Below the pieces are notes generated by a model. It saw only the letters and a program-made list of their open reading frames with translations, did not search any database and was not told the origin of the DNA. From assembly GCA_963776915.1 (NCBI GenBank), contig CAVZPE010000004.1, forward strand, positions 513,812-577,811: 64,000 bases of DNA, read 5' to 3'. The translations under genes and the position numbers were made by a program. The stretch's first letter is position 1. Every line of letters starts with the position of its first letter. Shown one piece after another: positions 14,086-57,520 of this stretch. This stretch comes from an uncultured Acidobacteriota bacterium (GTDB lineage Bacteria > Acidobacteriota > Thermoanaerobaculia > UBA5066).

Positions 14086-14285
14086 TTTCGAATTGTACCG
14101 GAGGAAGAGATGAATATTTCTGCTTAAGAGGGGAGAACGAGGGATGCAGTCGCGGCCGGCCGGAGCAAGGGCGCGTCGGAGCGCCGCTTCGCGGGCGAAG
14201 ACCGCTTGACAGCGGCCGGACCGCGCTCAGCTTTCCGGCCTATCGGCGGCTGCATTCGCAGCCGTCGCATCTAAGAGAAAAATCC
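14086..14285. repeat. Mosaic palindromic repeat, copy A (type-2 arms), between divergent purA and hutH
   Basis: The arms are AATATTTCTGCTTAAGAGGGG (14113) and CGCATCTAAGAGAAAAATCC (14266), in inverted orientation. The interior GC-rich hairpins include CGGCGGCTGC-ATTC-GCAGCCGTCG. About 190 nt align by eye with copy D at 37170-37360. Confidence 0.75.
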
Positions 14286-14308
14286 CCAGCTCCATTACCC
14301 GGTGCACA

Positions 14309-15841
14309 ATGCTCGCTCGTGCGATCAGACCATTCATTCTCGACGGGGACTCTCTTTCACTCGAAGATCTCTCCCGCGTCGCCTCCGGCGACGCGTCGGC
14401 GGCGCTCGCGCCGCGCGCCGCCGGGCGCGTGGACGCCGCGCGGGCCGTCATCGACCGGGCCGTCGCGGAGGACCGGGTCGTCTACGGGGTGACGACGGGC
14501 TTCGGCAGGTTCGCCGACGTCGTGATCCCCCGCGAGAAGCTCGGCGAGCTCCAGCTCAACCTCGTGCGGAGCCATGCGGCGGGGACGGGCGCCGCGCTCG
14601 GCGCGCCCGCCGTCCGCGCGGTGATGCTCCTGCGCGCGAACTGCCTCGCGAAGGGGTTCTCGGGAATCCGGCGCTCGACGCTCGAGCTCCTCCTCGCGTG
14701 CCTCGAGGCGGGCGTCCACCCGATCGTGCCGGAGCAGGGCTCCGTCGGCGCGTCGGGCGATCTGGCCCCGCTCGCGCACCTGGCGCTCGCGCTCGTCGGG
14801 GAAGGCGAGGCCGAATTCCGCGGCCGGCGCATGCCGTCCGCCGACGCGCTGCGGGAGGCGGGTCTTTCGCCCGCGGTTCTCGAGGCGAAGGAAGGCCTCG
14901 CCCTCATCAACGGGACCCAGCTCACGACGGCCCTCGGCGCCCTCGCGCTCGCGCGCCTTCTCGACCTCCTCAAGGCGGCGGACCTCGTCGGCGCCCTCAC
15001 GCTCGACGTCCTCAAGGGCACGGACGCGGCCTTCGACCCGCGCATCCACGCGGCGCGGCCGCATCCGGGCCAGATCGCGTCGGCCGCGAACCTCCGCGCG
15101 CTCCTCGCGGGGTCGCCCCTGCGCGAGAGCCACCGCCACTGCGGCGTCGTGCAGGACGCCTACACGCTGCGCTGCATGCCGCAGGTGCACGGGGCCGCGC
15201 GGGACGCGGCCGCGCACGCACGCCGCGTGATCGAGATCGAGATGAACGCCGCGACGGACAACCCGATGGTCTTCGCCGAAACGGGCGAGCTCGTCTCCGG
15301 CGGCAACTTCCACGCCGCGTCCGGTCGCCCTCGTCTGCGACCTCCTGGCGGCGGCGGTGGCCGACCTCGCGTCGATCTCCGAGCGGCGCGTCGAGCGGCT
15401 CGTGAACCCGTCGCTCTCGGGCGACCTGCCGGCGTTCCTCGTGAGGGACGGCGGCCTGAACTCGGGTCTCATGATGATTCACGTGACGGCGGCGGCGCTC
15501 GTGTCGGAGGCGAAGGCGAACGCGTTCCCGGCGTCCGTGGACTCGATCCCGACGTCCGCGGGCAAGGAGGACCACGTCTCGATGGGGCCGATCGCGGCGC
15601 GCAAGCTCGCGCGGAACGTCGACCTCTACGAGACCGTCCTCGCGATCGAGCTCCTCGCGGCCGGCCAGGCGCTGGACCTGAGGCGCCCGCTCGTCTCGTC
15701 GCCGCCCGCTCGAGGACCTGCACCGGCGTCCTGCGCGCGCGCGTGCCGTTCTGGGAACGCGACCGCGAGGCGGCGCCGGCGATCGAGGGGGCGCGGGCCG
15801 CTCTCGGCGGCCTCGGAGCGCTCCTCGCGACGCTCGGCTGA
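14309..15841 (+). pseudogene. hutH: Histidine ammonia-lyase, about 3 frame changes as assembled
   Basis: ORF 14309 is HAL-like up to GGNFHA (it carries the [17 protein letters not shown] motif). ORF 15357 continues the protein ([35 protein letters not shown]). The tail [16 protein letters not shown] returns to the first frame. The changes lie near 15319, 15706 and 15728. Confidence 0.85.
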
Positions 15842-15844
15842 TCC

Positions 15845-16833: not shown

Positions 16834-17088
16834 AAGAAGAGAGGAGAGGAAGAGGAAGAGGGAGATTTGCTGAGAGGGTCCCGAGCGGAGGCGCGGCCGG
16901 AGCGCTTCGGGCGGGCGGATCGCGAGGGCTCGGGCGATTGAAGATTTTCTTCGAAGGTGGTTAGAAAGGTCGAAAAGAACGGCGATGCCGCCGCGGCGAC
17001 CGGGCCTCTGTGCTTGCCGCCCGCACCGCGCACGGGACCATTCGAAGAAGTCTTCTCTTCCTCTTCCTTCTCCTCTTCTTGCTCTTCG
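16834..17088. repeat. Mosaic palindromic repeat, copy B (composite), bridging the two ArsA-like genes
   Basis: A polypurine run (16834-16860) is mirrored by a polypyrimidine run (17055-17088). The cores are GGAGATTTGCTGAGAGGG (16862), GAAGATTTTCTTCGAAGGTG (16941) and ACCATTCGAAGAAGTCTTC (17038). Two GC-rich loops lie between them. The minus-strand frame stays open ([37 protein letters not shown]). Confidence 0.8.
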
Positions 17089-17871
17089 GCCGCTTCCTCG
17101 TCGATCTCGGGCATCTCGACCATCGGAACGCCCGTCTCCCTCTTCGGCAGAATCTCCTCTCTTCCTCCCCGTCCGACCCGGTTCACGACGACGAGCGCCG
17201 TCGCGACACCCGCCGCGCCCCTGGCGCCCGCGACGAGCTCCTCGGTTTCGGTCGCGGCGAGCTCGGCAGGCTCGGCGACGGCGACGAGCGCGGTCTTCGC
17301 CGGGTCGGAGAGGAGGGCGTCGACGTCGAGAGCGAGCTTGCGGAGCGGGCCGGCGGGGACGGTCTTCAGGATCGTGCGGGGGAGCGAGAGGAGGGAGAGC
17401 GCGTGGCCCGTGGCGGGCGCGTCGAGGACGACGAGGTCGTAGCGCGGCTCCGTGCGCGGTGCCGCGCGTCCGCTTGAGGATCTCGCGGATCTTCCCGAGC
17501 AGGAGGAGGTCGGGCAGCCCCGGCGTCGCGCGCGTGAAGAAGCGGAAGACGGGGAGGGCGAGCATCCGGTCGCCGAGGAGGCGCACCGGTGCGACGGCGT
17601 GGACGAAGTCCGTCAGCAGCGCGTCGAAGTCCGTCGTGATCCCTCGGAGTCCCTCCGCGAGCGGCGCCTCGTCGTACCCACGGTCCTCGCGGCCGAAGAG
17701 AACGGCGGCGTCGCCGCGCCCGTCGGTCGAGACGAGGAGGACCGAGCGGCCCGACCGCGCGGCGAGGGCGGCGAGAGCGGCGGCGACGGTGGTCTTTCCG
17801 ACGCCGCCTTTCCCCGAGACGACGAGGACGGTTCGGGACGCGAGGCCCCGGAGGAGATCGGGCGCGCTCAC
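17089..17871 (-). pseudogene. ArsA/Get3-like P-loop ATPase (upstream member), one frame change near 17450
   Basis: The start reads MSAPDLLRGLASRTVLVVSGKGGVGKTTVAAALA..LLVSTDGRGD. After KIREILKRT the protein continues in another frame (EPRYDLVVLDAPATGHALSLLSLP..ALVVVNRV). No stop occurs before repeat B. Confidence 0.65.
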
Positions 17872-17991
17872 GGCCCTCCCGGGTTCAGGCGACTCCCTCC
17901 CGGAATTCCTTCTCCCCTCGAAAAAGGGACATAATCGTTCACTCTAGCAGGTGGCGCCGGACCGAGTGGCGCCCCGCGAAAGGCGAGCGAA

Positions 17992-20455: not shown

Positions 20456-21732
20456 TCAGCGGCCGCGGGCGGCCGTCATGCGGTCGAGGTCGGCTTCCAG
20501 CGTCGCGAGCGACGCGGCGAGGCGCGTCGTCGGGAGCGCGTCGGCGGTCCGCTCGTGGTGGCTCTTCACGCGGGAGCGGTCGCGCGCGCAGGCCGGCCTC
20601 AGGACGAGGCCGTGGCGTGCGAAGACCTTCTGCAGCCGCTTGAAGTCCGCGTCGAGCGTCGCCATCGTCGAGCGGTACGCGTACTCGGCGATGCGGATGC
20701 GCCCGACGTGCGCATGATGTTGCGCATGTAGCGCGGGAAGGTCCTCCGGGCGCGGCTCGAAGACGACGACGTCGGCCGCGGGGGCCTCGCGGCGGTAGCG
20801 CCCGAGCCCGTACTTGAGCCGCGAGTGAAGCGTGACGCGGAAGACCTGGTCGAGGATCGTCGGGAGGCCGCGGCGCCGAAGAGAGCCCGTCGCCGTGCCC
20901 GTTCGCGTCGCGCCGGGTGGAAGCGGACGGGCACGAGCGGGTTCACGCAGACCGTGAGGCCGCAGCGCTCGCGGATCGCGAGGGAGATGTGGGCCGTCTT
21001 CTTGACGCCGCCGTCGATGTAGTCGACGCCGTTGATCTGCACGGGGCGGTAGAGGCCGGGGATCGCGCACGACGCCGCGACCGCCTGCGAGATCGGGACG
21101 TCCTCGTGGCCGGCGCACCCGAACGCGGCCGTGTTGCCCGAGTCCAGGTCGACCGCGACGATCCGGAGCGTCCTGCCGAGCTTGCGGAAGTCGTTCGTGC
21201 GCCCGTCCTTCGTGAGCCAGTCGCGCATCCACGCCTCGAGCCCCTCGTTGTGGAAGATGCCCGAAGGCAGGAGCTGGCCGAGGGCCTGGACGAGGTCGGT
21301 GAGCGTCGTCTCGTGGCGGTTCTTGTAGTAGTCCCACGCGGCGTCCATGACCGTGAACGGCGCCTTCGCGAGGCGGCTCGCGATCTCCTCGAAGTTCACG
21401 CGGAAGAGGGCGAGATCGTCGATGTCGGTCCGCGCTTCCGCCGAGCGCGTCGCGTTGCGGAAGAGGAGCGCGGGCGTCACGCCGTTCGCGAGGAGCGCCG
21501 AGATGTAGGCCCCCGCCGAGACGCCGACGAACACGTCGAAGTCCGTGAGCGAGGCGTTCTCGAGGCGGTCCTCGAGGGCCGCGAGCGCGCCGATCTCGTA
21601 GACGGCGCCCGTGACGCCACCGCCCGCGCAGACGAGCCCGAGCTTCTTCGTGATCGGAGCGGGGAAGGGACGGAAGCGCTCGCCCGACGCATGGTCGGGC
21701 GGCAACCCGGGTCTCTCGCGGTGGATGCTCAT
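20456..21732 (-). pseudogene. Patatin-like phospholipase, about 3 frame changes
   Basis: ORF 20599-21732 carries GLVCAGGGVTGAVYEIG (oxyanion GGG), GVSAGA (GxSxG) and the catalytic-Asp region YIDGG. The C-terminus continues in the ORF 20456 frame (GLPTILDQVFRVTLHSRLKYGL...) with a short excursion (RYMRNIMR). Confidence 0.75.
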
Positions 21733-23077: not shown

Positions 23078-24763
23078 ATGTCCGCACCCGCCGCCGCCCC
23101 TCCCTACGCACCTCCGGACCTGCCGAAGGGCACCGCAGAAGTCCTGCCGGTCGTGGCTCACGGAGGCCCCTTACCGCATGCTGCTCAACAACCTCGACCC
23201 GGAGGTGGCCGAGCGCCGGGAGGACCTCGTCGTCTACGGCGGCTCGGGAAAGGCGGCGCGGAACCCGGAGTGCCTCGAGGCGATCCTCCGGGAGCTCCGG
23301 CGCCTCGGGGACGACGAGACCCTCCTCGTCCAGTCCGGCAAGCCGGTCGGAGTGTTCCGGACGCACGCGGACGCTCCGCGCGTCCTCATCGCGAACTCGA
23401 ATCTGGTGCCGAAATGGGGCACATGGGACGAATTCCGTCGGCTCGAGGCGCTCGGCCTGACGATGTACGGGCAGATGACCGCGGGGTCGTGGATCTACAT
23501 CGGCACGCAGGGGATCCTCCAGGGGACGTACGAGACGTTCGCGGAGGCCGCGCGGCGGGACCTCGGGTCGGCGGACGGCTCGCTCGCCGGCCGCCTCGCC
23601 GTCACGGCCGGCCTCGGCGGGAATGGGCGGCGCCCAGCCTCTGGCGGTCACGATGTGCGGGGGCACGGCCCTCGTCGCCGAGGTCGATCCGGCCCGGATC
23701 GACAAGCGCCTCGCGACGCGTTACCTCGACCTCAGGCTCGACGGGCTCGACGCGGCGATCGACCGGGCCCTCGCGGCCCGGGACGCGAAGGAGGCCGTCT
23801 CGATCGGCGTCCGCGCTAACGCGGTGGATCTCCTCGAGCGGCTCCTCGCGCGCGGGATCGTCCCGGACGTCCTCACGGACCAGACCTCCGCCCACGACGA
23901 GCTGAACGGTTACGTCCCGCACGGACTCCCGTACGAGGAGGCGCTGAAGCTGAGGACCGCCGATCCCGAGGCCTACCGCGGCCGCGCGATCGCCTCGATG
24001 GGCGCGCACGTGAGGGCGATGCTCGCGCTCAAGCGGCGCGGCGCCGTGACCTTCGACTACGGCAACAACCTCCGCGCGGGCGCGGTCCAGGCCGGCGTCG
24101 CGGACGCCTTCGAGATCGTCGGATTCGTCCCGCTCTACATCCGGCCGCTCTTCTGCGAGGGCAAGGGCCCGTTCCGCTGGGCCGCGCTCTCCGGAGACCC
24201 TGCCGACATCGCCGCGACCGACCGGGCGATCCTCGACCTCTTCCCGGAGAACGCCGCGCTCCGCCGCTGGATCACCCTCGCCGGGCAGCGCGTCGCGTTC
24301 CAGGGGTTGCCGGCGCGGATCTGCTGGCTCGGCTACGGCGAGCGCGCGAAGGCCGGCCTGGCCTTCAACGAGCTCGTCAGGACCGGGCGCGTGAAGGCTC
24401 CGATCGTGATCGGGCGCGACCACCTCGACTGCGGGTCGGTCGCCTCGCCGAACCGCGAGACGGAGGCGATGCGGGACGGGAGCGACGCGATCGCGGACTG
24501 GCCGCTCCTGAACGCAATGTTGAACACGGCCGCGGGCGCGACGTGGGTCTCGATCCACCATGGCGGAGGAGTCGGGATCGGCTACTCGCTGCACGCGGGC
24601 ATGGTCGTCGTCGCGGACGGCACGGACGCGGCCGCCGTGCGGCTCGCAGCGCGTCCTCACGACGGACCCCGGGACGGGCGTGATCCGCCACGCGGACGCG
24701 GGGTATCCCGAGGCCATCGCCTGCGCCGAGAGGAACGGCATCCCCGTCCCGATGCGCCGTTGA
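23078..24763 (+). pseudogene. hutU: Urocanate hydratase, about 3 frame changes
   Basis: The pieces are MSAPAAAPP.. (ORF 23033), [47 protein letters not shown] (ORF 21759), [38 protein letters not shown] (ORF 23623) and [34 protein letters not shown] (ORF 24560). GGGAATGGG at about 23625 looks like a 1-nt insertion in GLGGMGGAQP. Confidence 0.85.
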
Positions 24764-35987: not shown

Positions 35988-36168
35988 CCGAAGAGCGACG
36001 AAGGAAGAAGAAAGAAGATTCTCTTAGAAGGTGAAGAGGGGCGTGGCTGAGTCGGGCGCCCCGCGTTTCGTGTTCGGCCTGCACGGCCCCGCGCTGGATG
36101 CGGAGGAGAGGGCCTTTTTTTCGGCGCATCCGCCTCTCGGCTTCCTCCTGTTCAAGAGAAATCTTCAA
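35988..36168. repeat. Repeat copy C: polypurine arm plus forward core (35988-36042), with the partner reverse core at 36143-36168
   Basis: The left arm is CCGAAGAGCGACGAAGGAAGAAGAAAGAAGATTCTCTTAGAAGGTGAAGAGGGG and contains the nagZ GTG start. The partner TTCAAGAGAAATCTTCAATCGCCC matches copy B (reverse complement TTCGAAGAAAATCTTCAATCGCCC). Native NagZ N-terminal codons lie between the two cores. Confidence 0.65.
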
Positions 36169-37149
36169 TCGCCCTCACAAGTCGTGTCGCTGATCGAGGA
36201 GCTGCGAGGGCTCGGGGGGGCGGGAGCGGCGCCCGCCTCCGCGGGCGCCGCTCCCGCCCCGCTCCTCTTCGTGGACCAGGAGGGCGGGACCGTGGACCGC
36301 ATCGGCCCGCTCCTCGGCGTTCCGTTCGCGTCGGCCGCGGCCTGCGCGGAGGCCGGGACGGACCGCGTGCACGAGAACGCGTACCTCATGGGCCGGGCCG
36401 CGCGCCTCCTGGGATTCGACGTGGACTTCGCGCCCTGCCTCGACCTCGGGCAGCCCGGCGCGGGCGCGGTCGTCCTCGAGGGCCGGTGCTTCGGCTTCCA
36501 CGCCGAGGACGTCGTGATCGGCGGGATGGTCTTTCTCCACGGCCTCGCGCGCGCGGGCCTCGCGACCTGCGTCAAGCACTTCCCGGGTCTCGGGCGCGGC
36601 GCGGTGGACTCGCACGCGAAGCTGCCCGTCGTGGACGCGCACGACGTCGACCTCATGGTCACGGACGTCGCGCCCTTCGCGAAGCTCGGCCGCGGGGCCG
36701 ACGGGGTCATGGTCGGCCACGCGGCGTACCCCGGCTTCGAGAACGGAGCGATCGTGCCGGCGTCGCTCTCGCCGCGGATCCACGGAATCCTGCGCGGACC
36801 CGTCCGCTTCGAGGGCGTCGTCTACTCGGACGACCTCGAGATGAACGCTCTCGAGGGGACGCTGCCCGAGCGCGCCGAGCGCGCCGCGGCCGCCGGCTGC
36901 GACGTCGTGATCCTCTCGAGGACGTTCGAGGCCTACGCCGAGGCGGTCGCCCGCGTGGACGCCCTCGGCCCCGATGCCGCCCGCGCCGGGCGTCTCGACG
37001 CCCTCCGCCGCCGCGTCGCGGGCGCCCCGCGCCCGCGGTTCACCGAGGAGGCCTGGGCGAAGCTCGCGGAAGAGGCGGCAGCGTTCGGGGAGTTGATGTC
37101 GAAGCCGAGAGAGAAGAGAAGAGACGAAGACTTCGGAAGATTTTCTTAG
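36031..37149 (+). CDS. nagZ: Beta-N-acetylhexosaminidase (GH3, NagZ-like)
   Basis: This is an intact 372-aa ORF. LDAEERAFFSAHPPLGFLLFKRN, DQEGGTV and KHFPGLG are GH3 N-terminal domain motifs. The last 16 codons and the TAG stop lie in repeat D. Confidence 0.85.
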   Translation: MKRGVAESGAPRFVFGLHGPALDAEERAFFSAHPPLGFLLFKRNLQSPSQVVSLIEELRGLGGAGAAPASAGAAPAPLLFVDQEGGTVDRIGPLLGVPFASAAACAEAGTDRVHENAYLMGRAARLLGFDVDFAPCLDLGQPGAGAVVLEGRCFGFHAEDVVIGGMVFLHGLARAGLATCVKHFPGLGRGAVDSHAKLPVVDAHDVDLMVTDVAPFAKLGRGADGVMVGHAAYPGFENGAIVPASLSPRIHGILRGPVRFEGVVYSDDLEMNALEGTLPERAERAAAAGCDVVILSRTFEAYAEAVARVDALGPDAARAGRLDALRRRVAGAPRPRFTEEAWAKLAEEAAAFGELMSKPREKRRDEDFGRFS

Positions 37150-37370
37150 AAGGGAGAAGAGAGGAAAGAGGAAGATTCTTCTGCTAAGAGCGGCCGCTTC
37201 TCGCGGCCGCTCCGGAACGAATCTGTGCGCGCGCCGGGCTGTCAAGGGCGCGCTTCGCGCGCCGCGTAGCGGCCGAAGGCCCTTGACAGCGCGCCGCGCG
37301 CCCATCTTTCCTCGGCGGCGGCTGCGCATGCAGCCGCCGATAGCAGAAGAAATCTTCTCTTCTTCTCTCT
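37106..37370. repeat. Mosaic palindromic repeat, copy D (long form), between convergent nagZ and ssb
   Basis: The outer arms are GAGAGAGAAGAGAAGAGACGAAGA and TCTTCTCTTCTTCTCTCTTC. The cores are GAAGATTTTCTTAGAAGGGA (37136), GGAAGATTCTTCTGCTAAGAGC (37170) and GCAGAAGAAATCTTCT (37343). The interior hairpins are GCGGCCGC-TTCTC-GCGGCCGC, CTGTCAAGGGC...GCCCTTGACAG and CGGCGGCTGC-GCAT-GCAGCCGCCG. Confidence 0.85.
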
Positions 37371-37796
37371 TCAGAACGGGACGTCGTCGTCCGCGTCGCC
37401 GCCCTCCGGCGCCTCCGGCGCCGCAGCAGTGACGCCCGAGCTGGAGCCCGCGTCGGGCCGGCCGCCGAGCATCTTCATGTCGCGGGCCTTGATCTCCGTC
37501 GCATAGCGCTTCTGCCCGGACTCCTTGTCGTCCCAGCTGCGCGTCTGCAGCGAGCCCTCGATGTAGACGAGGCGGCCCTTCGACAGGTAGCGCTCGCAGA
37601 TGCTCGCGAGCTTGTCGAAGGCGATGACCGTGTGCCATTCGGTCTTCTCCTGCTTCTGCCCGCTGGCGCGGTCGTTCCACGTCTCGGTCGTCGCGACCCT
37701 CAGGCGCGCGATGGGGACGCCGCCGGTCGTGGCGCGCATCTCGGGGTCGGCGCCCAGGTGGCCGATCAGGATGACTTTGTTGACAGAACCAGCCAT
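37371..37796 (-). CDS. ssb: Single-stranded DNA-binding protein
   Basis: A 141-aa protein starts at the internal ATG 37796 of ORF 37371-39446. The sequence is NKVILIGHLGADPEMR..EKTEWHTVIAF with the acidic tail DADDDVPF. Confidence 0.9.
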   Translation of the reverse strand: MAGSVNKVILIGHLGADPEMRATTGGVPIARLRVATTETWNDRASGQKQEKTEWHTVIAFDKLASICERYLSKGRLVYIEGSLQTRSWDDKESGQKRYATEIKARDMKMLGGRPDAGSSSGVTAAAPEAPEGGDADDDVPF

Positions 37797-40142: not shown

Positions 40143-41106
40143 TCAGTGCCCGTCGAGGCAGCCCTTCTGGCCGCTGCTGTTCGGGTAGCCGGTGCCGGCC
40201 GTGTAGGCCGCGTTCGACCACTCGCCCTGCAGCTTCCACGAGGTGCCGCCCGAGAACGAGACCGACGGGACGTTGAACGTCCAGGCGCACTTGTCGCCGT
40301 TCTCGGCGCCCGAGGAGTCGAACCAGCCCGTGCCGCGGGGATCGGTCATCGCCTCGGAGAGCTCGTGCGCGGAGACGTTCGCGAGGGCCGCGAGACCCTG
40401 CGAATGCGTCGTCGTCGTGTCCTGCGGGTCGCAACCGGCGTCGCCGTCGAGGTTGAAGAAGAACGCGAACTGGATCGGAACGCCGTTGCAGCTTCCCCAG
40501 CTGTGCCACGCGCAATATCCGGCGTGCCCGCGTTTGACGTCCGTGTAGACCGGGTAGTAGCCGTTCCGCCACGGGACTCGAGATCGTCTTGCAGACTTCT
40601 GCGAGGATCGGTGCGGTCCGGCTGCCCCCGGTCGCCGTCGAGAAGTCGAGATGGCGGCCGTTGAACTGGGACGCCGCGGTCACCTGGCCGTTGCTCCCGC
40701 TGTACTCGGTGGAGGTCTTCGCGTAGTTGCTCCCGCCGAAACCCTGGTAGAACGAGTCGAGGCCCGTGACCTTGTCACCCGCGAAAGTACCCACGTTCCA
40801 GCTCGGCCCCCAGAAGATGCTCTCGACGGCCGAGGAAACCATGATCGGGCCGTTGTGCCAGGTCATGTTCGGCGATCCGCCGCCTCCGGGCCTCCTGAGC
40901 GCCTGCCGCCCGGCGGCCTTCGCGTGCTCCTCGCGCGTCAGGAAGATGACCGTCGGCGCGTCGGTCGGCGCGCCCTCCACGTCCGATGCGGCCACGGTGG
41001 TGTCCGCGTCGCCACTCACGGCGCGCACGTCCTCCGCGAACGCGGGCGCGGCCGCGAGGGCGAACGCCGCCACGAGGGCCAGGACTGGAATCTGCCCCTT
41101 CTTCAT
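40143..41106 (-). pseudogene. Secreted hypothetical protein (~320 aa), one frame change near 40577
   Basis: The signal peptide is MKKGQIPVLALVAAFALAAAPAFA, preceded by an AGGAGGA RBS. After ...CKTISSP the protein continues in another frame: WRNGYYPVYTDVKRGHAGYCAWHSWG..SAHELSEAMTDPRGTGWFDSSGAENGDKCAW..CLDGH*. Confidence 0.55.
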
Positions 41107-41284
41107 GGAATCTCCTCCTGAACGGACCGGTATCTCGCCGTGAATTGGCTCGACGGACGGGCAGCGAGTACCCCGACCGAGGCCCCGGTTGCTTGCTGGA
41201 CCTGTACGCTAACAGAGAGCAAGACTCTCTCTCAACGGAAATCCCGATGACGCGGCGGAGCAAAGGCGGCGCGTCAGGAGCCCG

Positions 41285-45978: not shown

Positions 45979-46817
45979 ATGAAACGCGCTCTCCTCGCCT
46001 CCGCGCTCCTCCTCGCCGCCTCCCGCCTCCGCGCAGACGCGCGTGACGTGCGGCACGGTCGACGCGCTCGAGGTGACGTCCCTGACGCGGACGAGGGTCA
46101 CCGCCTTTCTCCGGACGAAACTTCCGGACGCGCCCGCCGGCGCGAAGAGTTTCTTCGAAGGGAAGATCGAGCTGGCGAACACGATCCTGCCGGTCGGGCA
46201 GCCGGTGACGTTGCTCGTGCAGCACGTTGCGGAGGGCCACGAGGCCGTCTTCCTCGTCGATCTCGAGCTGTCCCGGGTTCCCGCCGAGCTCGTCGCACGA
46301 CTCCATTCCGCCGCGCTCGATTTCACGCTCGAAGGAAATCTCCGGACCTCCGCCGGCGCGACGCCGCACCCCGTGTGCGCCGCCGGCGTCCTGCGCGTCG
46401 GGACGAACGACATCCGGGCGGTGGGCCCCGTCGGCCAGGACTTCGCGAGGTTCTCCGGCGTGCGCTTCGCGCGGAATCTCCCTCGCCGAGACGCAGGGCG
46501 AGGCGTCCGTGGTCATCTACAACCCGCTGTCCTTCGCGCTCGACGTCAAGGACCTCGTGTACGAGATCCGCGCCGGCGACCGCAGGGTGGCGTCCGGCGA
46601 GCGCCACGGGATCCGGATCTACCCCGGCCGCGAGACTTCCGTCGACCTCCCGGTCGTCGCGGGCAATGCCGACCTCGCCGCCGCCCTCGCGGGCGCCGCC
46701 CTTTCGGGCGGGCGCGTCGAGGGACGGCTCGTCGCGACGATCTCCGTGAAGGTCGGAAAGGACCAGGTCATGACCGTTCCGCTCAACCTCCCCGGGGCGA
46801 TCCAGGTGGTGCCGTGA
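45979..46817 (+). pseudogene. LEA_2 / WHy-like lipoprotein, two frame changes (about 46040 and about 46480)
   Basis: The pieces are MKRALLASALLLAAS.. (ORF 45979), TCGTVDALEVTSLTRTRVTAFLRTKL.. (ORF 46043) and ETQGEASVVIYNPLSFALDVKDLVYEIRAGDRRVASG..MTVPLNL (ORF 46227). The family call is by eye. Confidence 0.45.
46144..46343. repeat. Inverted core pair inside the LEA_2 gene
   Basis: GAAGAGTTTCTTCGAAGGGAAG lies at 46144 (coding KSFFEGK). GCTCGAAGGAAATCTCC lies at 46327 (coding LEGNL). Both are AT-rich patches in GC-rich coding sequence, in forward-then-reverse orientation. Confidence 0.5.
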
Positions 46818-47614: not shown

Positions 47615-49600
47615 CGCGCGGGCGGCCCTTCCGGCGCGTCCTCGTCGCGAACCGCGGCGAGATCGCAGTGCGCGTCGTCCGCGGCTGCCGCGCGGCGGGC
47701 CTCGCGTCGGTGGCCGTGTACTCCGAGGCGGACCGGAACGCGCGCCACGCCGCGCTCGCCGACGACGCCGTCGAGATCGGCCCGGCGCCGGCCCGGGAGA
47801 GCTACCTCTCGATCCCGAGGCTCCTCGCGGCGGCGAAGAGCGACGGGCTGCGACGCCGTGCATCCCGGCTACGGCTTCCTGTCGGAGAACGCGGACTTCG
47901 CGCGCGCGGTCGAGGAGGCGGGGCTCGTCTGGATCGGCCCTCCGCCCGAGGCGATGGAAGCGATGGGGAGCGAAGATCGCATCGCGAGAGAACGGATGAG
48001 AGCGGCCGGCGTCCCCGTCGTGCCCGGCGCGCTCATCGCCGGGTTCGAAGAGGACGAAGAGAGAGAGAAGATTTCTTCGAATGGTAAAGAGGGCGGGGCG
48101 CGCGGTGGCGCCGCTCGGCGCGCGGCGGGGCAGCCCGCAACCTCTGGCACCTTCAAAGAAATCTCTTCTTCTTCTTCCTCTTCCTTCAAAGAAATTCTCT
48201 CTCTGGGTCTTCCCGTCGTCGTCAAGGCTTCGGCGGGAGGCGGCGGCAAGGGGATGAGGGTCGTCCGCTCGTCTGCGGAACTCTCCGAAGCCATTTCTTC
48301 CTGCCGCCGCGAGGCGGCGGCGGCGTTCGGGGACGCGACCGTTTACGTCGAGAAGTACCTCGAGAATCCGCGCCACGTGGAGGTCCAGGTCTTCGGCGAC
48401 TGGCACGGCAACGTCGTCGCGATCGGCGAGCGCGAGTGCTCGCTCCAGAGGCGTCACCAGAAGGTCGTCGAGGAGTGCCCGTCTCCGGCCGTGACGCCGG
48501 AGCTGCGCGCGCGCCTCCTGAAGGCCGCCGTCGACGCCGCGAAGGCGGTCGGCTACGTGAACGCCGGGACGGTGGAGTTCCTCCTCGCGCCCTCGGGCGA
48601 GTTCCATTTCCTCGAGATGAACACGCGCCTGCAGGTCGAGCACCCGGTCACCGAGGAGGCTTTCGGCGTGGACCTCGTCCTCCTCCAGCTCGCCGTCGCG
48701 GCGGGGGAGAAGCTGCCGCCTCTCCCGTCCGTCCCGATCCGCCATGCGATCGAGGCGCGGGTCTACGCGGAGGATCCCGAGGCGGGGTTCCTGCCTCAGG
48801 CGGGGCGCGTCCTCCTCTATCGCGAGCCCTCGGGACCCGGCGTGCGGGTGGAGTCCGGCCTGGCCGAGGGCCAGGACGTCGGCGTCCACTACGACCCGCT
48901 GCTCGCGAAGGTCGTCGCCTCCGGCGCGACGCGCGACGAGGCCCGGCGGCGCCTCGTCGGCGCTCTCGGGGAGACGGTGATCCTCGGCGTCTCGACGAAC
49001 GTCTCGTGGCTGCGCCGGCTCCTCGAGACGCCCGAGGTCGCAGCGGGGGCGATCCACACGGGCCTCCTCGAGACTCTCCCCGTGCCCGCGCCTCCGGCGC
49101 CGCCCGACGAGGCGTTCGCGGCGGCCGCGGCGGCGCTCGTCCGGAGCGGCGCCCTCCGGTCCCGGCGGTCCCGTCCTCGCCGACCCATTCGACGGCCGGT
49201 TCCGGACCGGAGGCGGCGCGTGAGGCTCCGCGAGGCGGCGACGGGGGCGTCGCGCGAGGTCCGTCCCGGCGGGATGCCGCGCGGAGCCTTCGCCGCGCGG
49301 GACGGCGAGGTCGCGTGGGTCTTCCTCGGCGGCGAGACGTGGCGCATCTCGAAGGCGCCGGCCCGGGCCGCCCGCGCGGCGGAGGAGGAGCACGCCCTCA
49401 CCGCTCCGATGCCGGGCAGGGTCTCGGCCGTGCGCGTGTCCGACGGGCAGGCCGTGGAGAAGGGCGAGGTCCTCGTCGTGCTCGAGGCCATGAAGATGGA
49501 GCACGCCGTGAGGGCCCCGCGAGCCGGAATCGTCGCGCGACTCGCCGCCGAGCCCGGGAAGATGGTGGGGCTCGGGGACGTTCTCCTCGACGTCACATGA
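47611..49600 (+). pseudogene. mccA: Methylcrotonyl-CoA carboxylase alpha subunit (biotin carboxylase + BCCP), about 3 frame changes plus an in-frame repeat insertion
   Basis: The GTG at 47611 forms a GTGA overlap. It carries FRRVLVANRGEIAVRV (ORF 47182), HPGYGFLSEN..KASAGGGGKGMRVV..EMNTRLQVEHPVTE and the biotinyl site EAMKME (ORF 47858). The frame changes lie near 47850, 49145 and 49215. Confidence 0.85.
48044..48203. repeat. Palindromic repeat, copy E, in-frame inside mccA
   Basis: The left arm is GAAGAGGACGAAGAGAGAGAGAAGATTTCTTCGAATGGT. A GC-rich loop follows. The right arm is CACCTTCAAAGAAATCTCTTCTTCTTCTTCCTCTTCC, and CCTTCAAAGAAAT is duplicated. The translation is EEDEEREKISSNGKEGGARGGAARRAAGQPATSGTFKEISSSSSSSFKEILS. 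Confidence 0.85.
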
Positions 49601-51655: not shown

Positions 51656-51663
51656 CACGGGAG

Positions 51664-51682
51664 GCGCGGCCGCAGGCCGCGC
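51664..51682 (+). terminator. Hairpin after the response-regulator gene
   Basis: The stem is GCGCGGCC-GCA-GGCCGCGC (8 bp). It is followed by a T-containing tract that runs into the heptamer repeat. Confidence 0.45.
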
Positions 51683-51689
51683 TCCGGGG

Positions 51690-51862
51690 CTTTCGGATTT
51701 CGGATTTCGGATTTCTTAGAAGGGTGAGTGGGGCTGCGGCTCGACCGCCGGCGCGGCGGTCACTCGGCCGCCTCGATCCCTCTTCACCTTCTAAGCAATC
51801 CTCGGGTCCTCGCTTTCCCTCTTCCTCCCCTCATTCGAAGAAATTCTCCTTTCCGATATCCT
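51690..51862. repeat. Repeat copy F upstream of valS, preceded by a 7-nt tandem repeat (ATTTCGG x3-4)
   Basis: The tandem tract is CTTTCGG ATTTCGG ATTTCGG ATTTCTT. The forward core is TTAGAAGGGTGAGTGGGG, followed by a hairpin loop (GACCGCC-GGCGC-GGCGGTC). The reverse core is CCCTCTTCACCTTCTAAG, followed by a polypyrimidine run and CTCATTCGAAGAAATTCTC. Confidence 0.8.
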
Positions 51863-51871: not shown

Positions 51872-54532
51872 GTGAAGGAGCTCGAGAAGACCTTCGACCC
51901 GTCCACCTTCGAGATGCGCTGGTACAAGGCGCAGGAGGAGGCCGGTGTCTTCCGTCCCGAGTCCGCCGGCCGGGACGCCGAGCCGTTCACGATCGTGATC
52001 CCGCCGCCGAACGTCACGGGGCGGCTGCACGTCGGTCACGCGCTCGGGCGGACGCTCGAGGACGTCCTGTGCCGCTGGCGCCGCATGCAGGGGCGCGCCG
52101 TCCTCTGGGTCCCCGGCGTCGACCACGCCGGCATCGCGACGCAGATGGTCGTCGAGCGCGACCTGAGGGAACGGACGGGCCAGTCGCGCCACGACCTCGG
52201 CCGCGACGCGTTCGTCGCGCTCTGCCGCGAGTGGGCGGACGCGCGCCGCGGAGACATCCTCGACCAGATCCGGCGGCTCGGCTGCTCGTGCGACTTCACC
52301 CGCGAGTACTACACGCTCGACGCGATCCGCTCGCGCGCCGTCCGCTTCGCGTTCACGACGCTCTACGAGCAGGGCCTCGCCTATCGCGCCGAGCGGCTCG
52401 TGAACTGGTGCCCGAGCTGCGCGACCGTCCTCTCCGACCTCGAGGTGAACCACGTCGAGACGTCCGGGCACCTGTGGTCGATCGCGTACCCCGTGGTGGG
52501 CGGCGGGGAGGTCGTCGTCGCGACGACGCGGCCCGAGACGATGCTCGGCGACACCGCGGTCGCCGTGCACCCCGACGACGAGCGCTACGCCGGCGCTCGT
52601 CGGCAAGCGCGTGACGCTTCCGCTGACGGGCCGGACCATCCCGGTGATCGCCGATTCCTTCGTGGAGAGGGAGTTCGGGACGGGGATCGTCAAGGTGACG
52701 CCCGCGCACGATCCGAACGACTTCGAGGCGGGCAGGCGCCACGGGCTCGACCTCGTGACCGTCATCGGGTTCGACGGCCGGATGACGCCGGCCGCCGGCG
52801 CCGCGTACGCGGGCCTCGAACGCGCCGAGGCGCGCAAGAAGGTCCTGCGGGACCTCGAGGCGCAGGGCCTGCGCCGGGGCGAGAAGAGCCACCTCGTGCC
52901 GCTCGCGCGCTGCCAGAGGTGCGACACGATCGTCGAGCCGCTCGTCTCGATCCAGTGGTTCGTGAAGATCGGCCCTCTCGCCGCCAAGGCGGTCGAGGCG
53001 ACGGAGAGGCGGGAGACGACCTTCACGCCCGAGCTCTGGAAGAAGACCTACGACGAGTGGATGCGGAACATCCGCGACTGGTGCATCTCGCGCCAGCTCT
53101 GGTGGGGACACGAGATCCCGGCCTGGTACTGCCCGGACGGCCACGTGAACGTCCCGAAGCCGGGCGCGGACGACCCCACGGCGTGCGCGACGTGCGGCTC
53201 GGCCGCCCTCGTGCGCGACCCGGACGTGTTCGACACGTGGTTCTCGTCGTGGCTCATGCCGCTCTCCGTGTTCGGCTGGCCCGCGAAGACGGCGGACTTC
53301 GAGCGCTTCTATCCGACGAGCGTTCTCGTGACGGGCTTCGACATCCTCTTCTTCTGGGTGGCCCGGATGATCATGGCCGGCACCTGGTTCGACGGGCGGG
53401 CGCCCTTCCGGGACGTGGTCCTGCACGGCCTCGTGCGCGACGAGAAGGGCCAGAAGATGTCGAAGACGAAGGGCAACGTCGTCGACCCGCTCGAGATGTG
53501 CGACGAGTTCGGGGCGGACGCCGTGCGGTTCACGCTCGCCGTCCTGTCCGGCACGGGCCGCGACCTCCCGTTCGGCAAGTCGCGCGTCGCGGGTTACCGC
53601 GGCTTCGCGACGAAGGTCTGGAACGCCGCGCGCTTCGCGCTGCCCCTGATCTCGGAAGGAGCGTGCGTGGACGCGCTCGAGTTCCGTTCCCTCTCCACGG
53701 TCGACCGCTGGATCCTCGCGCGGTTCTCGGACGCCGCGAGCCGCGTGGGCGCGTCCCTCGAGGCCTGCCGCTTCGACGAGGCGGCGCACGCGCTCTACCA
53801 GTTCTTCTGGTCCGAGTTCTGCGACGGCTACGTCGAGATGATCAAGCCGGTCCTCCGCGGCGCCGACGTGCCGGAGGCCGAGAAGGCGCGGACGCGCGGC
53901 GTCCTCAAGCGGGTGCTCCTCGACTCGCTCGCGCTCCTGCATCCGTTCATGCCGTTCGTGTCCTGCGAGATCCGCGAGGCGCTGAACGGGGACGGCCTCG
54001 GCCTCGCGACGGCGAAGTTCCCCGAGCCGGACCCCGACTGGAAGGACGACGCGGCGGTGAGGTGGTCGAGACTCCTGCGGGCGATCGTGACGCGAGTCCG
54101 GAACCTGCGCGCCGAGCACGGCCTCGCGCAGACCGAGGCGCTCGCGGTCGGCCTCGAGCTCCCGCAGGACCCCTTTCAGAGGGAAATGCGGCGTCACGTC
54201 CCGCTCCTGAGCCATCTCGCGCGGCTCAGCGCCGTGGAGATTTCTTCGAGGTGGAATTGGCCCGGAGCGCATCGCGACGTCGTCGCGGAGATCGGGATCG
54301 TCGTCGAATTGCCTTCGAAGAGAGATTTCTTCCGAAGACAGGGAGAAGCTGCGAGCGCGACGTGGAGCGCCTGCGCGCCGAGGCGGCGAAGATCAGAGCG
54401 CGGCTGGCCGACCAGAGCTTCCTCGCGCGCGCTCCCGCACCCGTTGTCGCGAAGACGAAGCAGCAGCTCGAAGAAATCTCCGAACGGATCGCGCGGCTCT
54501 CCGGCAACCTCGTGGGGACTCCGGACCGGTGA
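51872..54532 (+). pseudogene. valS: Valyl-tRNA synthetase, two or more frame changes (about 52590 and about 54340)
   Basis: The GTG at 51872 gives MKELEKTFDPSTFEMRWY. The sequence carries PPPNVTGRLHVGHAL (HIGH motif), TRPETMLGDTAVAVHPDD, then ORF 52611 (GTGIVKVTPAHDPNDF..KMSKTKGN, the KMSKS motif). The coiled-coil tail returns to the first frame. Confidence 0.9.
54237..54340. repeat. Inverted core pair G inside the valS C-terminal region (a further core lies at 54466-54480)
   Basis: GAGATTTCTTCGAGGTGGAATTGG lies at 54237. GAATTGCCTTCGAAGAGAGATTTCTTCCGAAGA lies at 54305. They flank native-looking codons (PGAHRDVVAEIGIVV). The second valS frame change lies at the right core. Confidence 0.6.
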
Positions 54533-55353: not shown

Positions 55354-55354
55354 C

Positions 55355-56155
55355 ATGGAGGCCCCGGAGCTCGACGAGTCCACGTACGCGACGAGAGTCG
55401 AGGACGCCTTCATCGCCGAGCGCGGCACGCCCTTCCTCCTCTCGCCGAAGGACTGGACGCTCATCCGCGGCTGGCGCGAGGGCGGGATCCCGGTGGACAC
55501 CGTGGTCCGGGCCGTGCGGGAGGCGTTCGAGAAGCGGCGCGCGCGCGGCCAGGCCGGCAAGATCTCGTCCATCGCGTACTGCGCGAACGCCGTCGAGGAG
55601 CTCTGGGAGATGGAGCGCCGGGGCCTCGTGGGCAAGGCCCACGAGGCCCCCCCGGCGGGCGCGAACGCGCCCGCGAGAGGAGAGAAGTCTCTTGCTTTGC
55701 TCTCGGATCGTCTGCGCGCGATGAGCGACGCTCTCGCGACCATGGACGGCGCTGAAGATCTTCTTAGAAGGGTGAGTGGGGCCGGGGCGGCGGGCAGCGC
55801 CGGTGCGGCTCCTCGAGCGGAGGGCGCCCCAAACACCTTCGAAGAAATCCCCCTCTTCTCGTCCCTCCGAAAGTCGCTGAGCTCCGCCGCCTCGAAGATC
55901 GAGGCGCTGCCGCGCGATCTTTCATTCGAAGAATCCGAAGAGAAGCTCTCCGTGATCGAGGCGTCGCTCGTGAAGTCGGCCCTCCGCGTCCTGCCGTCCG
56001 AGCAGCAGGCTCTCGTCGAATCCCGCGTGTCCTCCGCCCTCGGCGACGTCGCCGGCGTGTCGCCCGCGGTCGTCGAGCGGATGCGCCGGGCGCTCACGCG
56101 CCGCGAGGTGCGCCTGCTCCTCGGCCTGCCGGCCCTCACGCTCCTCCATGGCTGA
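55355..56155 (+). CDS. Hypothetical protein with a conserved N-terminal domain; the C-terminal half carries repeat H
   Basis: This is an intact 266-aa ORF. The N-terminus AFIAERGTPFLLSPKDWTLIRGWREGGIPVDTVVRAV looks like a conserved uncharacterised family that I cannot name. Confidence 0.55.
   Translation: MEAPELDESTYATRVEDAFIAERGTPFLLSPKDWTLIRGWREGGIPVDTVVRAVREAFEKRRARGQAGKISSIAYCANAVEELWEMERRGLVGKAHEAPPAGANAPARGEKSLALLSDRLRAMSDALATMDGAEDLLRRVSGAGAAGSAGAAPRAEGAPNTFEEIPLFSSLRKSLSSAASKIEALPRDLSFEESEEKLSVIEASLVKSALRVLPSEQQALVESRVSSALGDVAGVSPAVVERMRRALTRREVRLLLGLPALTLLHG
55754..55860. repeat. Palindromic repeat, copy H, in-frame inside the 55355 gene (an extra core lies at 55919-55940)
   Basis: The forward core is GAAGATCTTCTTAGAAGGGTGAGTGGGG, and its last 22 nt are identical to copy F. 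A GC loop follows. The reverse core is CACCTTCGAAGAAATCCCCCTCTTCTC. The translation is EDLLRRVSGAGAAGSAGAAPRAEGAPNTFEEIPLFS. Confidence 0.8.
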
Positions 56156-57520
56156 GGTCCGCCCGGGCGACGCCCTCGAGGCTCTCGTCGAGCGCGTCGT
56201 GCCCGGGGGCGAGGGGCTCGCGCGAACGGAGGGCGTCGTGACGCTCGTGGCGGGCGGCCTGCCGGGGGACCGCGTCCGGCTGCGGGTGGAGGACGCGTCT
56301 CCCCGCCTCATCCGGGGTCGCGCGGAGGAGATTCTCGAGGCGGGCGAGGCGCGCCGCCCGGACGCCGACGTCTGCGGCCTCGCGCGGAGCGGCGCCTGCG
56401 GCGGCTGCGACTGGCCCGCTGCGCGGCCGGAGCACCATCGCGCGCTCAAGACCGAGCTCGTCCTCGACGCGCTGCGGCGGCTCGGCGGCCTCACCGCGGC
56501 CGACCTGCCCGAGCCGCGCTGGCTGGGTTCCCCGCCGAACTACCGCCTCCGCAACCGGCTGCACCTCGACCGCGAGGGGCGCCTCGGCTTCTTCGCGCCC
56601 CGCTCGAAGGCGGTCGCGGACCTCGAGGGCTGCCAGATCGTGTCGAAGCCCTTCCTGGAGCGGCTCCCGGCGCTCCGGGACCACCTTCGCTCGATGGGGC
56701 CGATGGAAGGGGAGCTCTTGACCCTGGAGTCGCGCGACGGGAAGACCCTGCTCGGCGAGTTGCGGCTCTCGGCGGGTGACGGTCTGCAAATTTCTTCGAA
56801 GGTGAAAGAGAGAGGGAGAGGGCCGTTCGACGGGTTTCGCGTCGTCGATGCGGGTGGGCGGCTGCTCGCCTCGGACGGTCCCTCGTCGCTTTCCATCGAG
56901 GCAGGCGGCGCCTCGTTCGACGTGCCGGTGTCTTCCTTCTTTCAAGGAAATCTCTTTCTCCTCGATTCGTTCCTCGAGGAGATCCGGACGGCGCTTCGCG
57001 CCGGAAGAGAAGAGAAGATTTTCCTAGAAGGGAAGAGGGGGGAGGCGCGCGCTTGCGCGCCGTGGATCTCTATGCGGGCGTCGGGTTCATGACGCGCCCT
57101 CTCCTGGAGCTCGCGGCCGAGATGGGAGGCGGCGAGGTGACGGCCGTCGAGATCGACCCGGCGTCGTCCCATTCACTTTCAAAGAATCTTCAGGCCTGGC
57201 AGAAGGAGGGCCTGCCCCTCGCGCGCTCGATCCGAGCCTCCGCTGAATCCTTCTTCCACTCGAAGAAATCCGAATCTTCGGTCTCTCTTCTCCTCGCGGA
57301 CCCTCCGCGCGCCGGCCTGTCGCCCGAGGTGCGGAAGGGGCTCCTGCGGCTCGCGCCGCCGCGCGTCCTGATGGTGTCCTGCGACCCGCCGACGCTCGCC
57401 CGCGACCTCGCGGCGCTGAAGGAGCGCTACGCGGTGACGCGCCTGACGCTCCTCGACCTCTTCCCGCAGACCCACCACGTCGAGACGGTGGCCTTGCTCG
57501 CCGCGCGTCCGATCGGATAG
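56148..57520 (+). pseudogene. 23S rRNA (uracil-5-)-methyltransferase RlmD/RumA-like (TRAM, Fe-S Cys cluster, SAM MTase), one frame change near 57040
   Basis: ORF 56148 carries CGLARSGACGGCDW and SSFFQGN. ORF 57053 carries VDLYAGVGFM, LLADPPRAGL, MVSCDPPTLARDL and DLFPQTHHVETV. The join falls in repeat I-3 at a G6 run. Confidence 0.8.
56788..57293. repeat. Cluster I: five core copies inside the rlmD-like gene
   Basis: The five cores are AAATTTCTTCGAAGGTGAAAGAGAGAGGGAGAGGG (56788), CTTCTTTCAAGGAAATCTC (56936), GAAGAGAAGAGAAGATTTTCCTAGAAGGGAAGAGGGGGG plus the GGCGCGC-GCTT-GCGCGCC hairpin (57004-57060), CTTTCAAAGAATCTTCAG (57175) and CCACTCGAAGAAATCCGAATCTTCGGTCTCTCTTCTCC (57256). Confidence 0.7.

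Follow-up and report, generated by a model that had tools for sequence, protein, structure and literature searches.

An apparently undescribed family of AT-rich paired inverted repeats, largely inside genes, in uncultured GC-rich Thermoanaerobaculia

Short palindromic repeats of bacteria, such as REP/REPIN sequences and MITEs (miniature inverted-repeat transposable elements), are usually seen as intergenic, the classic exception being the Rickettsia palindromic elements (RPEs). RPEs, which Ogata et al. are said to have described in 2000 and 2002, are reportedly palindromes of ~100-170 bp that lie in frame in unrelated housekeeping genes, are kept at orthologous sites and add extra peptides; they reportedly share a consensus over their whole length and are treated as decaying insertions. 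REPINs consist of conserved REP arms around spacers that vary in length and sequence yet form hairpins, and they have a cognate single-copy RAYT (PMC3337134), as in Pseudomonas fluorescens SBW25 (PMC3337134, PMC3116915). Bacterial MITEs, the Correia elements included, have been reviewed (PMC10969869). Here we analyzed a stretch of 64,000 nucleotides (the window) from an uncultured Acidobacteriota bacterium of the Thermoanaerobaculia (assembly GCA_963776915.1, contig CAVZPE010000004.1, positions 513,812 to 577,811 of the forward strand), in which paired, AT-rich inverted repeats recur within DNA of ~72% mean GC. No counterpart was found, and the family appears to be previously undescribed; it belongs to uncultured, GC-rich soil Thermoanaerobaculia and sits largely inside essential genes. 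The REPIN is the closest known system, and the RPEs come nearest as a precedent for palindromes that lie in frame in housekeeping genes. Since the family fails defining features of REPIN, RPE, MITE and uptake signals, we treat it as a novel variant among palindromic repeats. What is new is that the AT-rich arm pairs are mostly intragenic, in a free-living, very GC-rich and uncultured clade.

The repeat family is genuine, being the product of neither chance nor assembly artefact. A 34-nt position weight matrix (PWM), applied at a threshold of at least 14 bits, gave 22 matches in the window against 0.05 in codon-block shuffles. These matches fall into ~11 units, roughly one per 5-6 kb. When up to 3 mismatches were allowed, the 17-mer core was found 9 times (0.13 expected), and GATTTCTTMGAAGG with up to 2 mismatches 14 times (0.28 expected), a count reached in 0 of 100 shuffles; perfect cores are rare, with 2 in 64 kb. 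An earlier note, made from the letters of the window, had proposed a family of some 30 copies. The PWM scan of the window and its relatives bears out the family, and the total is reasonable once the arms of a second variant (below) are counted. All ten pairs that it named were located, at most a few bases off, with refined positions 16944/17039, 36018/~36150, 37140/37345, 46148/46326, 48070/48150 (+48183), 51710/51787 (+51832), 54239/~54313, 55758/55836, 56789/56939 and 57018/57176 (+57257). Its degenerate copy at 8396-8414 is present near 8388-8414. The distribution that it described as patchy is not significantly so: for one 19-kb gap with 11 units in 64 kb, a simple Poisson calculation gives P ~0.3-0.4.

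The comparison rests on five syntenic loci, mutually non-independent, that were reached through homologues. L082 and L083 are closest to the window, L081 and L084 form a sister subclade, and L085 is the outgroup; L083 is the metagenome-assembled genome (MAG) GCA_036504335.1, from a separate project. Background loci were biotin-carboxylase relatives from other phyla, at no more than 56% identity, among the matches listed. The density of PWM matches per 10 kb was 3.3 in the window, 5.6 in the four clade relatives and 5.5 in metagenome loci; it was 0 in the outgroup L085, itself of 73% GC, and 0.32 in 1.3 Mb of unrelated loci. Arms lie at orthologous positions in the four related Thermoanaerobaculia MAGs, whereas the more distant L085 has none. 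The exact paired-arm pattern was also found in 29 metagenome contigs of 63-73% GC, from many samples, including those of JGI. That the family is an artefact of error-prone long-read assembly, a thought raised by ~13 non-triplet indels in 13 kb of the window relative to intact orthologues, is hardly credible: four other assemblies, GCA_036504335.1 from the other project among them, carry the same arms at matching sites, and the arms recur in the 29 metagenome contigs. Adapter contamination was likewise ruled out, by the arms at orthologous sites in independent assemblies. The earlier note had recognized no described family, and our searches agree. Viral contigs gave zero matches to the exact paired-arm pattern, plasmid records no similarity to the elements, and a literature search with the arm sequences no described counterpart. 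At the gathering threshold Rfam returned two tRNAs only in the window, and at E <= 1 nothing relevant between 46 and 57.5 kb.

The common (type-A) arm is ~24 nt long and AT-rich, GATTTCTT(C/A)GAAGG(G)TGA(A/G)(A/T)G(G/A)GG. A unit is made of two such arms facing each other, forward and then reverse, 60-270 nt apart, and for almost all arms a convergent partner lies no more than 300 nt away. Convergent pairs numbered 7 in the window and 8 in the metagenome against 1 and 0 divergent pairs (15 vs 1 in total); because the metagenome matches were found by a convergent-pair pattern, the pair so ascertained was left out of these counts. Folding of a single strand would give a hairpin with GATTTC/GAAATC at its base. 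As either order of the arms would give an equally good hairpin, the fixed order means that the unit has polarity. In a full unit a left purine tail, (GAAGAG)n, is followed by an arm, a GC-rich self-complementary spacer of ~40-100 nt, the opposing arm and a right pyrimidine tail complementary to the left one. Full units fold as long hairpins, with z = -3.2 (E6), -3.9 (E7), -5.9 (E2) and -9.5 (E4b). The spacers are unrelated between loci, so that the arms alone are shared, and the outer ends are low-complexity purine/pyrimidine tails of variable length, without defined termini. This architecture, proposed in the earlier note, holds as a full design for E2, E4, E6 and E7; it does not hold for every copy, many of which were formed in place rather than as arm-spacer-arm insertions.

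The second arm variant that had been proposed is real as well, and rarer. This type-B arm reads GAAGATTCTTCTGCTAAGAG..., with internal CTTGACAGCG and a subterminal GGCGGCTGC-N-GCAGCCG hairpin. Type B (TTCTGCTAAGAG..GCGGCCG) is present at 14101-14290 and 37162-37376 and in part at 16850, and it shares only the outermost GAAGATT(T)CTTC with type A. A search of the relatives and the metagenome loci found no type-B arms outside the window. Composite units combine arms as forward-forward-reverse (E2, E4) or forward-reverse-reverse (E6, E7, E11). Possible target-site duplications are CTTTC(G/C)GAT at E7 and GCGCTT(C)GCGCC / GCGCTTCGCGCC at the RumA insertion (E11), where the outer ends are tails of variable length. 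By our reading of the frames, arm variants hold stops in particular frames, which would explain the recurrent peptides KISSNG.../...TFEEI and DLLRRVSG.... The units of the window are as follows; their map bears out the description of the family as palindromic, mosaic and present both between and inside genes.

8384..8414, decayed reverse arm in a Ser/Thr kinase-STAND gene (Pfam Pkinase + nSTAND1), coding for YSFEEISGSS; PWM 18.3 bits.
14101..14290, E1, type-B palindrome between the divergent purA and histidine ammonia-lyase genes (Pfam), with arms ATATTTCTGCTTAAGAG / CTAAGAGAAAAATC, internal CTTGACAGCG and hairpin GGCGGCTGC-N-GCAGCCG; fold z -2.4.
16834..17085, E2, composite: purine tail, type-B-like forward arm at 16862, type-A forward arm at 16944, spacer, reverse arm at 17039, pyrimidine tail (z -5.9); on the minus strand, an in-frame linker that joins two ArsA-like ATPase halves.
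35998..36172, E3, purine tail and forward arm at 36018, inserted between the mutS stop and nagZ start codons; reverse arm at 36146-36172, made in place in nagZ codons 41-47 (LFKRNLQS, outgroup LLPRNLTS).
37110..37376, E4, type-A forward arm at 37140, then a complete type-B palindrome of ~200 nt at 37162-37376 (fold z -9.5), between the convergent nagZ and ssb and adjoining the ssb stop codon.
46144..46345, E5, forward arm at 46148 (SFFEGK) and weak reverse arm at 46326 (TLEGNL), in place in a LEA2-like gene; confined to the window/L082/L083 subclade (outgroup QTFRGE, TLRGTL).
48047..48205, E6, purine tail, forward arm at 48070, 47-nt spacer, reverse arm at 48150, pyrimidine tail and duplicated reverse arm at 48183 (z -3.2); a full element adding ~37 residues in frame to the biotin carboxylase subunit (MccA-like, AccC).
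51691..51859, E7, between a response-regulator gene and valS: (TTTCGGA)3, forward arm at 51710, reverse arms at 51787 and 51832 (z -3.9); in the window and L082, absent from L083 and L081, a different copy in L084.
54236..54478, E8, in place in the ValS C-terminus: forward arm at 54239 (VEISSRW), forward-like or hybrid arm at 54312-54338 (REISSED), reverse arm at 54465 (LEEIS).
55751..55944, E9, in a conserved hypothetical gene: forward arm at 55758 (DLLRRVSGAG), spacer and reverse arm at 55836 (TFEEI), together an in-frame insertion of variable length; a further reverse arm at 55923 (SFEES), formed in place.
56786..56963, E10, in the gene of a RumA-like methyltransferase: forward arm at 56789 (QISSKVKERG), reverse arm at 56939 as AT-ending synonymous codons within the conserved FFQGN motif.
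57004..57293, E11, in the RumA gene: ~41-nt insertion of purine tail and forward arm (57004-57046), reverse arms at 57176 (SLSKNLQ) and 57257 (FHSKKSES), both formed in place without length change relative to the outgroup.

Two of the pairs in the earlier note required revision. The arms at 37136/37343 exist, but they do not make a single unit, the type-A forward arm being followed by a complete type-B element; and the sequence at 54309, taken as a reverse partner, is present as a hybrid or forward-like arm. The nagZ-ssb site (E4) carries a simple type A in L083, type A with type B in the window and no unit in the outgroup. E3 is a mixed unit in which an inserted intergenic forward arm has a partner written into nagZ coding sequence. 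In seven of the 11 units one arm or more is intragenic. The earlier statement that copies lie inside open reading frames (ORFs) without closing them is thus sound as to location; its open-frame argument is weakened, because the window carries ~13 non-triplet indels, three of them in or next to E8 and E9.

Three kinds of candidate were set aside on the anatomy of the units. Invertible segments (intragenic invertons) are excluded, as no inverted spacer was seen among orthologues and inversion would destroy the ValS and kinase cores. Palindromic sites of the parS, Noc or SlmA type were ruled out on the grounds that the arm is no dyad and the units are widely dispersed. A sigma-54 promoter is not general to the family, TGGCAC being confined to the AccC reverse arm.

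Alignment with orthologues shows that only some copies are insertions and that about half have been rewritten in place without change in length. The clearest insertion is that in AccC. Here an element of ~114 nt lies between the N-terminal and ATP-grasp domains, where 52 query residues stand opposite 15 in a chain of the methylcrotonyl-CoA carboxylase alpha structure 3u9s. Its site is shared by the window, L082, L081, L084 and many homologues in databases. Only a lone reverse arm is left in L083 and a few others, and L085 and more distant relatives lack the element. Within genes, those insertions that have survived in orthologues with intact ORFs keep the frame and lie in tolerant loops or linkers. 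The E11 insertion (57004-57046) is found in the window and L084 only; its length is not divisible by 3, and the reading frame of RumA changes there. In L084 the corresponding RumA stretch (21000-21150) carries a longer insertion, in which a 15-nt duplicate of the upstream flank (GCGCTTCGCGC) interrupts the forward arm. The arrangement suggests that the insertion junction slipped or was duplicated, and that this one site either took up insertions repeatedly or lost them precisely in three independent events. At E7, the forward arm is preceded (51661-51711) by a GC-rich hairpin, GAGGCGCGGCCGCAGGCCGCGCTCC, 3' of the response-regulator stop and then by (TTTCGGA)x3; both are also in L082 and are missing from the similar spacer of L083, which retains GGATTCGGCTTTCCGAT only.

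The arms formed in place occupy native codons in ValS, RumA, NagZ, the LEA2-like gene and Ser/Thr kinases. Their length equals that of the outgroup, and they flank segments clearly homologous to it. The earlier note had implied that all copies are mobile elements that inserted; for about half of them, namely those in the genes just listed, this does not hold. Examples from the window are given below.

54239, ValS: clade VEISSRW, outgroup LVVAPKV.
54465, ValS: clade LEEIS.
56939, RumA FFQGN: clade TTC TTT CAA GGA AAT CTC TTT (in variants, in all five clade genomes), outgroup TTC TTC CAG GCG AAC CGG TTC.

The in-place motif is used in all three reading frames and yields the peptides DFFEG, ISSK/N, FEEI and SKKS. 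Arms also turn over synonymously, as in CTCGAGGAGATC of the window vs CTCGAAGAAATC of L082. The sequence [TC]TCGAAGAAATC and its GC-rich synonym occur 20 vs 4 times in 150 kb of clade sequence and 0 vs 4 times in 574 kb of other high-GC loci. The arm motif drives codon and peptide composition in the clade.

The Ser/Thr kinases carry DFLEGEE ... SFEEI on either side of the canonical RFxREA...HPNI segment. Matches within kinase domains account for 12 of the 29 metagenome matches, several of the others being in-frame insertions in other genes, and these 12 independent metagenome kinases have perfect arm pairs, the rare TTA codon included. Two of the metagenome contigs, L092 (1816-4433) and L110 (2297-7599), contain tandem paralogous Ser/Thr kinase genes ~2.5 kb apart, each with the same arm pair 94 nt apart followed by poly-Ser, for which the pyrimidine tail codes. 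The window, too, has a pair of neighboring Ser/Thr kinase genes at 5769-10702, a kinase-TPR and a kinase-nSTAND1 NTPase. The decayed arm peptides (EIFREGE...SFEEIS) are in the second kinase only, the first being canonical, and the forward position that matches the decayed arm (near 8294) now has GC-richer codons (EIFREGE). WD40/PD40/PKD repeat proteins are encoded nearby, at 1804-5188 and 11522-12604.

Conservation was examined at the nucleotide level. Between subclades, A/T third codon positions were retained at 71% inside cores and 26% elsewhere (Fisher P = 1e-10), in a test that conditions on motif matches in one genome and draws on few, non-independent relatives. Against L083 the retention was 82% inside cores and 28% elsewhere. 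Outside the arms, the GC content of third positions (GC3) is ~89%. Within the AccC element, mean pairwise identity was 92% for the forward arm, 80% for the reverse arm, 63% for the spacer and 51% for the purine tail, with 80% for the flanking coding sequence; it is therefore the arms, and not the whole element, that are preserved. These comparisons show that constraint on the nucleotides keeps the arms, but not the spacers, in place at orthologous sites in different species. Conservation is stronger in the arms than in the essential coding sequence on either side.

Set beside the described systems feature by feature, the family does mix REP/BIME, MITE and RPE traits, as the earlier note had said. 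With REPINs it has in common short, conserved, inverted arms, variable hairpin-forming spacers, lone-arm remnants, clusters or composites and a lineage-specific distribution; REPINs, too, reportedly persist at orthologous sites. The relation of arm to spacer is that of a REPIN, given the 15 convergent pairs vs 1, spacers 63% identical even between orthologues, and hairpin z values of -3.2 to -9.5. Unlike REPINs, the present units have arms that are AT-rich in a 72% GC genome, carry purine/pyrimidine tails and are also formed in place. The likeness to RPEs lies in the in-frame palindrome at orthologous sites. The AccC element, ~114 nt or ~37 residues in four genomes and many further homologues, is the leading case, and the ArsA linker and the hypothetical gene are further ones, the extra peptides falling in tolerant regions. 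The differences are that only ~24-nt arms are shared here, with no consensus over the whole element, and that the arms are constrained at the nucleotide level, many of them without insertion. The family also belongs to another phylum of opposite base composition; homology with RPEs thus seems unlikely.

The resemblance to MITEs is one of size (~100-250 bp), ~26-nt terminal inverted repeats, hairpin potential, presence/absence differences and the lack of an own transposase. Here, however, the copies lack internal homology, their termini and target-site duplications are unclear, and a parent insertion sequence (IS) was not found in the scanned window ORFs, viral contigs or plasmids; copies also form in place and are mostly intragenic and in frame. 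The uptake signals of Pasteurellaceae and Neisseria (USS/DUS) are similar in that a long motif, written in place within coding regions and read in several frames, shapes the usage of codons and peptides, as well as in their orthologous sites in related species and their inverted pairs between genes. They differ in that the present unit consists, even within genes, of two convergent arms around a long spacer; its motif is degenerate, and tails and spacers go with many copies.

The reading that we tentatively favor, and that falls just short of probable, is that the paired arms are a DNA recognition site for a putative trans-acting factor, in a REPIN/RPE-like palindromic family. Arm pairs arise through insertion of an arm, a fast-evolving GC-rich hairpin spacer and a second arm, usually with tails. 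Arms also arise by substitution, with native codons rewritten beside an existing partner. A putative sequence-specific factor, encoded elsewhere in the genome, would read the paired arms, and this factor, or a host function dependent on the sites, would prevent arm decay and favor the completion of pairs. Its nearest precedent is the REPIN with its single-copy RAYT-type enzyme. A bolder version, which we regard as rather doubtful, takes the arms as a DNA "address" used across the genome and actively inscribed in coding sequence, and not as the mere termini of a selfish insertion. Machinery specific to the clade would read convergent pairs, probably as hairpins or cruciforms, and this machinery or a linked drive would convert codons and keep the arms intact over long times, as an intragenic counterpart of REPIN-RAYT. 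Were this so, the sequences of the essential proteins ValS, RumA, MccA and the kinases would have been reshaped. Arms that arise without insertion do alter protein sequence, as in the change from LVVAPKV to VEISSKV in ValS. If confirmed genome-wide, the family would offer a tractable case for a DNA signal and protein coding that share bases, and for finding the reader. The elements also add low-complexity peptides to proteins of the clade and mark it in metagenomes.

Several points weigh against a recognition site of the REPIN/RPE kind. REPINs are extragenic, whereas the units here are mostly intragenic, and REP itself is a small imperfect palindrome, whereas the present arm is not: its only dyad is a contiguous 8 bp, CTTCGAAG, which has no loop and is broken in the common TTAGAA variant. 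No RAYT (Y1 HUH) gene, which in REPIN systems usually has the repeats on its flanks, was found in Pfam scans of the main window ORFs. The earlier note had seen no transposase, and the Pfam-scanned ORFs, which take in the greater part of the window, indeed contained no transposase, RAYT or recombinase domains. In-place formation of arms has, to our knowledge, not been described for REP, RPE or MITE families; a host binding site under selection, or a molecular drive, would account for it no less well. To these points belong the conditioning of the constraint test on one genome, its few and related genomes, and the low power of the RNA-asymmetry test below.

Were the units selfish miniature mobile DNA of the MITE or RPE type, all copies would be insertions, those in genes being in-frame survivors, functionless and decaying. 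The arms could then act as ~24-26-nt terminal inverted repeats of hairpin-forming units, and presence and absence do vary among the relatives. In-frame insertions in AccC, the ArsA linker and the hypothetical gene fit such an origin (RumA has been counted with them, though its ~41-nt insertion in the window is not a multiple of 3), as do the possible target-site duplications at E7 and E11, the lone reverse arm of L083 as a remnant and the nested or composite units E2 and E4. About half of the arms, however, replace native codons at equal length around segments homologous to the outgroup, and the arms outconserve their essential coding surroundings, keeping AT third positions despite the high GC3. 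The spacers are moreover not homologous between loci, the outer ends are variable tails and not defined termini, and no parent IS was found, with plasmid and viral collections free of matches; we consider this origin unlikely. Equally hard to favor is a host cis-acting site under ordinary selection, at which a nucleoid or regulatory protein would bind or cruciform-prone DNA would relieve supercoiling, palindromic insertion being only one route of delivery. It would account for arms that arise in place and turn over synonymously, for the nucleotide-level constraint and strand symmetry, for the fixed relative orientation, and for the recurrence of units every ~5-6 kb in the window. Yet no known class of site has half-sites 60-270 bp apart with variable spacing, the tails and hairpin spacers resemble the baggage of repeat elements, copies have decayed in some paralogues (as in the kinase at 8159), and a binding protein is so far only putative.

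A DNA-uptake signal of the USS/DUS type, spread by biased uptake and recombination, would explain accumulation in place in all three frames, a motif that drives codon and peptide composition, orthologous sites across related species and a local density of 0.3-0.55 per kb; comEC, too, lies in the window. We hold it to be improbable, as the pairs are overwhelmingly convergent and 60-270 nt apart even in genes, whereas uptake signals are single and in either orientation, as perfect cores are rare (2 in 64 kb), and as it leaves the long purine tails and the spacers unexplained. Hairpins that act in the mRNA, as processing or stability signals or by masking ribosome-binding sites, are suggested by the ribosome-binding-site-like GAAGGTGA in the forward arm with its complement in the reverse arm, by the pairing of the arms with each other in predicted minimum-energy folds and by the position of the E3 forward arm just 5' of the nagZ start codon. 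An AU-rich arm would also be, we suppose, a rare single-strand cleavage-prone spot in a GC-rich mRNA. Folding energy, however, is equal on sense and antisense strands (12 vs 12 elements), as are G-U counts, at a sample size (n = 24) that gives the comparison low power. Units also lie between convergent (E4) and divergent (E1) genes, Rfam gave no match, and intrinsic terminators, considered as a further candidate, are not in excess (8 vs 6.3 expected). The strand symmetry, this placement and the lack of terminator excess leave nothing that points to structure in the sense-strand RNA, and the recurrence of the same arm sequence everywhere argues for recognition of sequence and not for pairing alone. 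An RNA-level role thus seems very improbable, and we infer that recognition would be at the DNA level, either as duplex or as hairpin/cruciform.

The genes of the window, as assigned by Pfam and homologues, are in order purA, histidine ammonia-lyase, a two-domain ArsA-like ATPase, ..., mutS, nagZ, ssb, murJ, ..., a methylcrotonyl-CoA carboxylase/leucine-catabolism cluster, a response regulator, valS, birA, a hypothetical gene, a RumA-like methyltransferase and comEC. Both kinds of evidence assign the window to the Thermoanaerobaculia, and the nearest homologues of the biotin-carboxylase ORF (47858-49600) are 73-85% identical and labelled as Thermoanaerobaculia or Acidobacteriota MAGs. DNA alignment with intact orthologues revealed 13 window-specific non-triplet indels in ~13 kb, mostly single-base insertions outside homopolymers, at 40244, 46019, 46471, 47841, 47969-47986, 49141, 50198, 50438, 52590, 54320, 54358, 55859 and ~57030; those at 54320, 54358 and 55859 are within or beside E8 and E9. 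With the intact orthologues as queries, tblastn showed frame changes in hyp336, LEA2, accC (two), the HMG-CoA lyase gene (two), valS (two) and rumA; valS, accC, the HMG-CoA lyase gene and rumA, broken by indels in the window, are intact in the four relatives. We read these ~13 frameshifting indels as assembly errors, since a rate of ~1 per kb makes an unpolished long-read assembly likelier than pseudogenes. In so error-prone a window, the element sequences themselves may carry such errors, for example GATTTTCC at 57018. Introns, programmed frameshifting and bypassing had been considered, given the likeness of GGTGAGT to a splice donor and the change of frame at elements in several genes. They were ruled out, as frameshifts also occur at sites without elements and are mostly single-base insertions, with intact orthologues.

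Gene calls on the source contig will be fragmented or falsely fused, as in the accC-BCCP fusion ORF at 47858-49600. Between 25000 and 29000 the GC content is unusually high (78-79%) and the AT skew strongly negative, and very long overlapping ORFs on both strands (for example 23623-27324, plus; 23602-27111, minus) have no Pfam match past a urocanase domain at the start. The window (41180-41260, minus strand), L082 (~3593) and L083 (~3679) have in common a near-identical intergenic segment 5' of an M50 peptidase/HU gene pair. It reads ATTTC(C/T)(G/A)TTGAGAG(A/C)GAGTCTTGCTCTCTG(T/C)TAGCGTAC and contains a GAGAG-N-CTCTC hairpin; it could be a leader or a small RNA and is unrelated to the repeat family.

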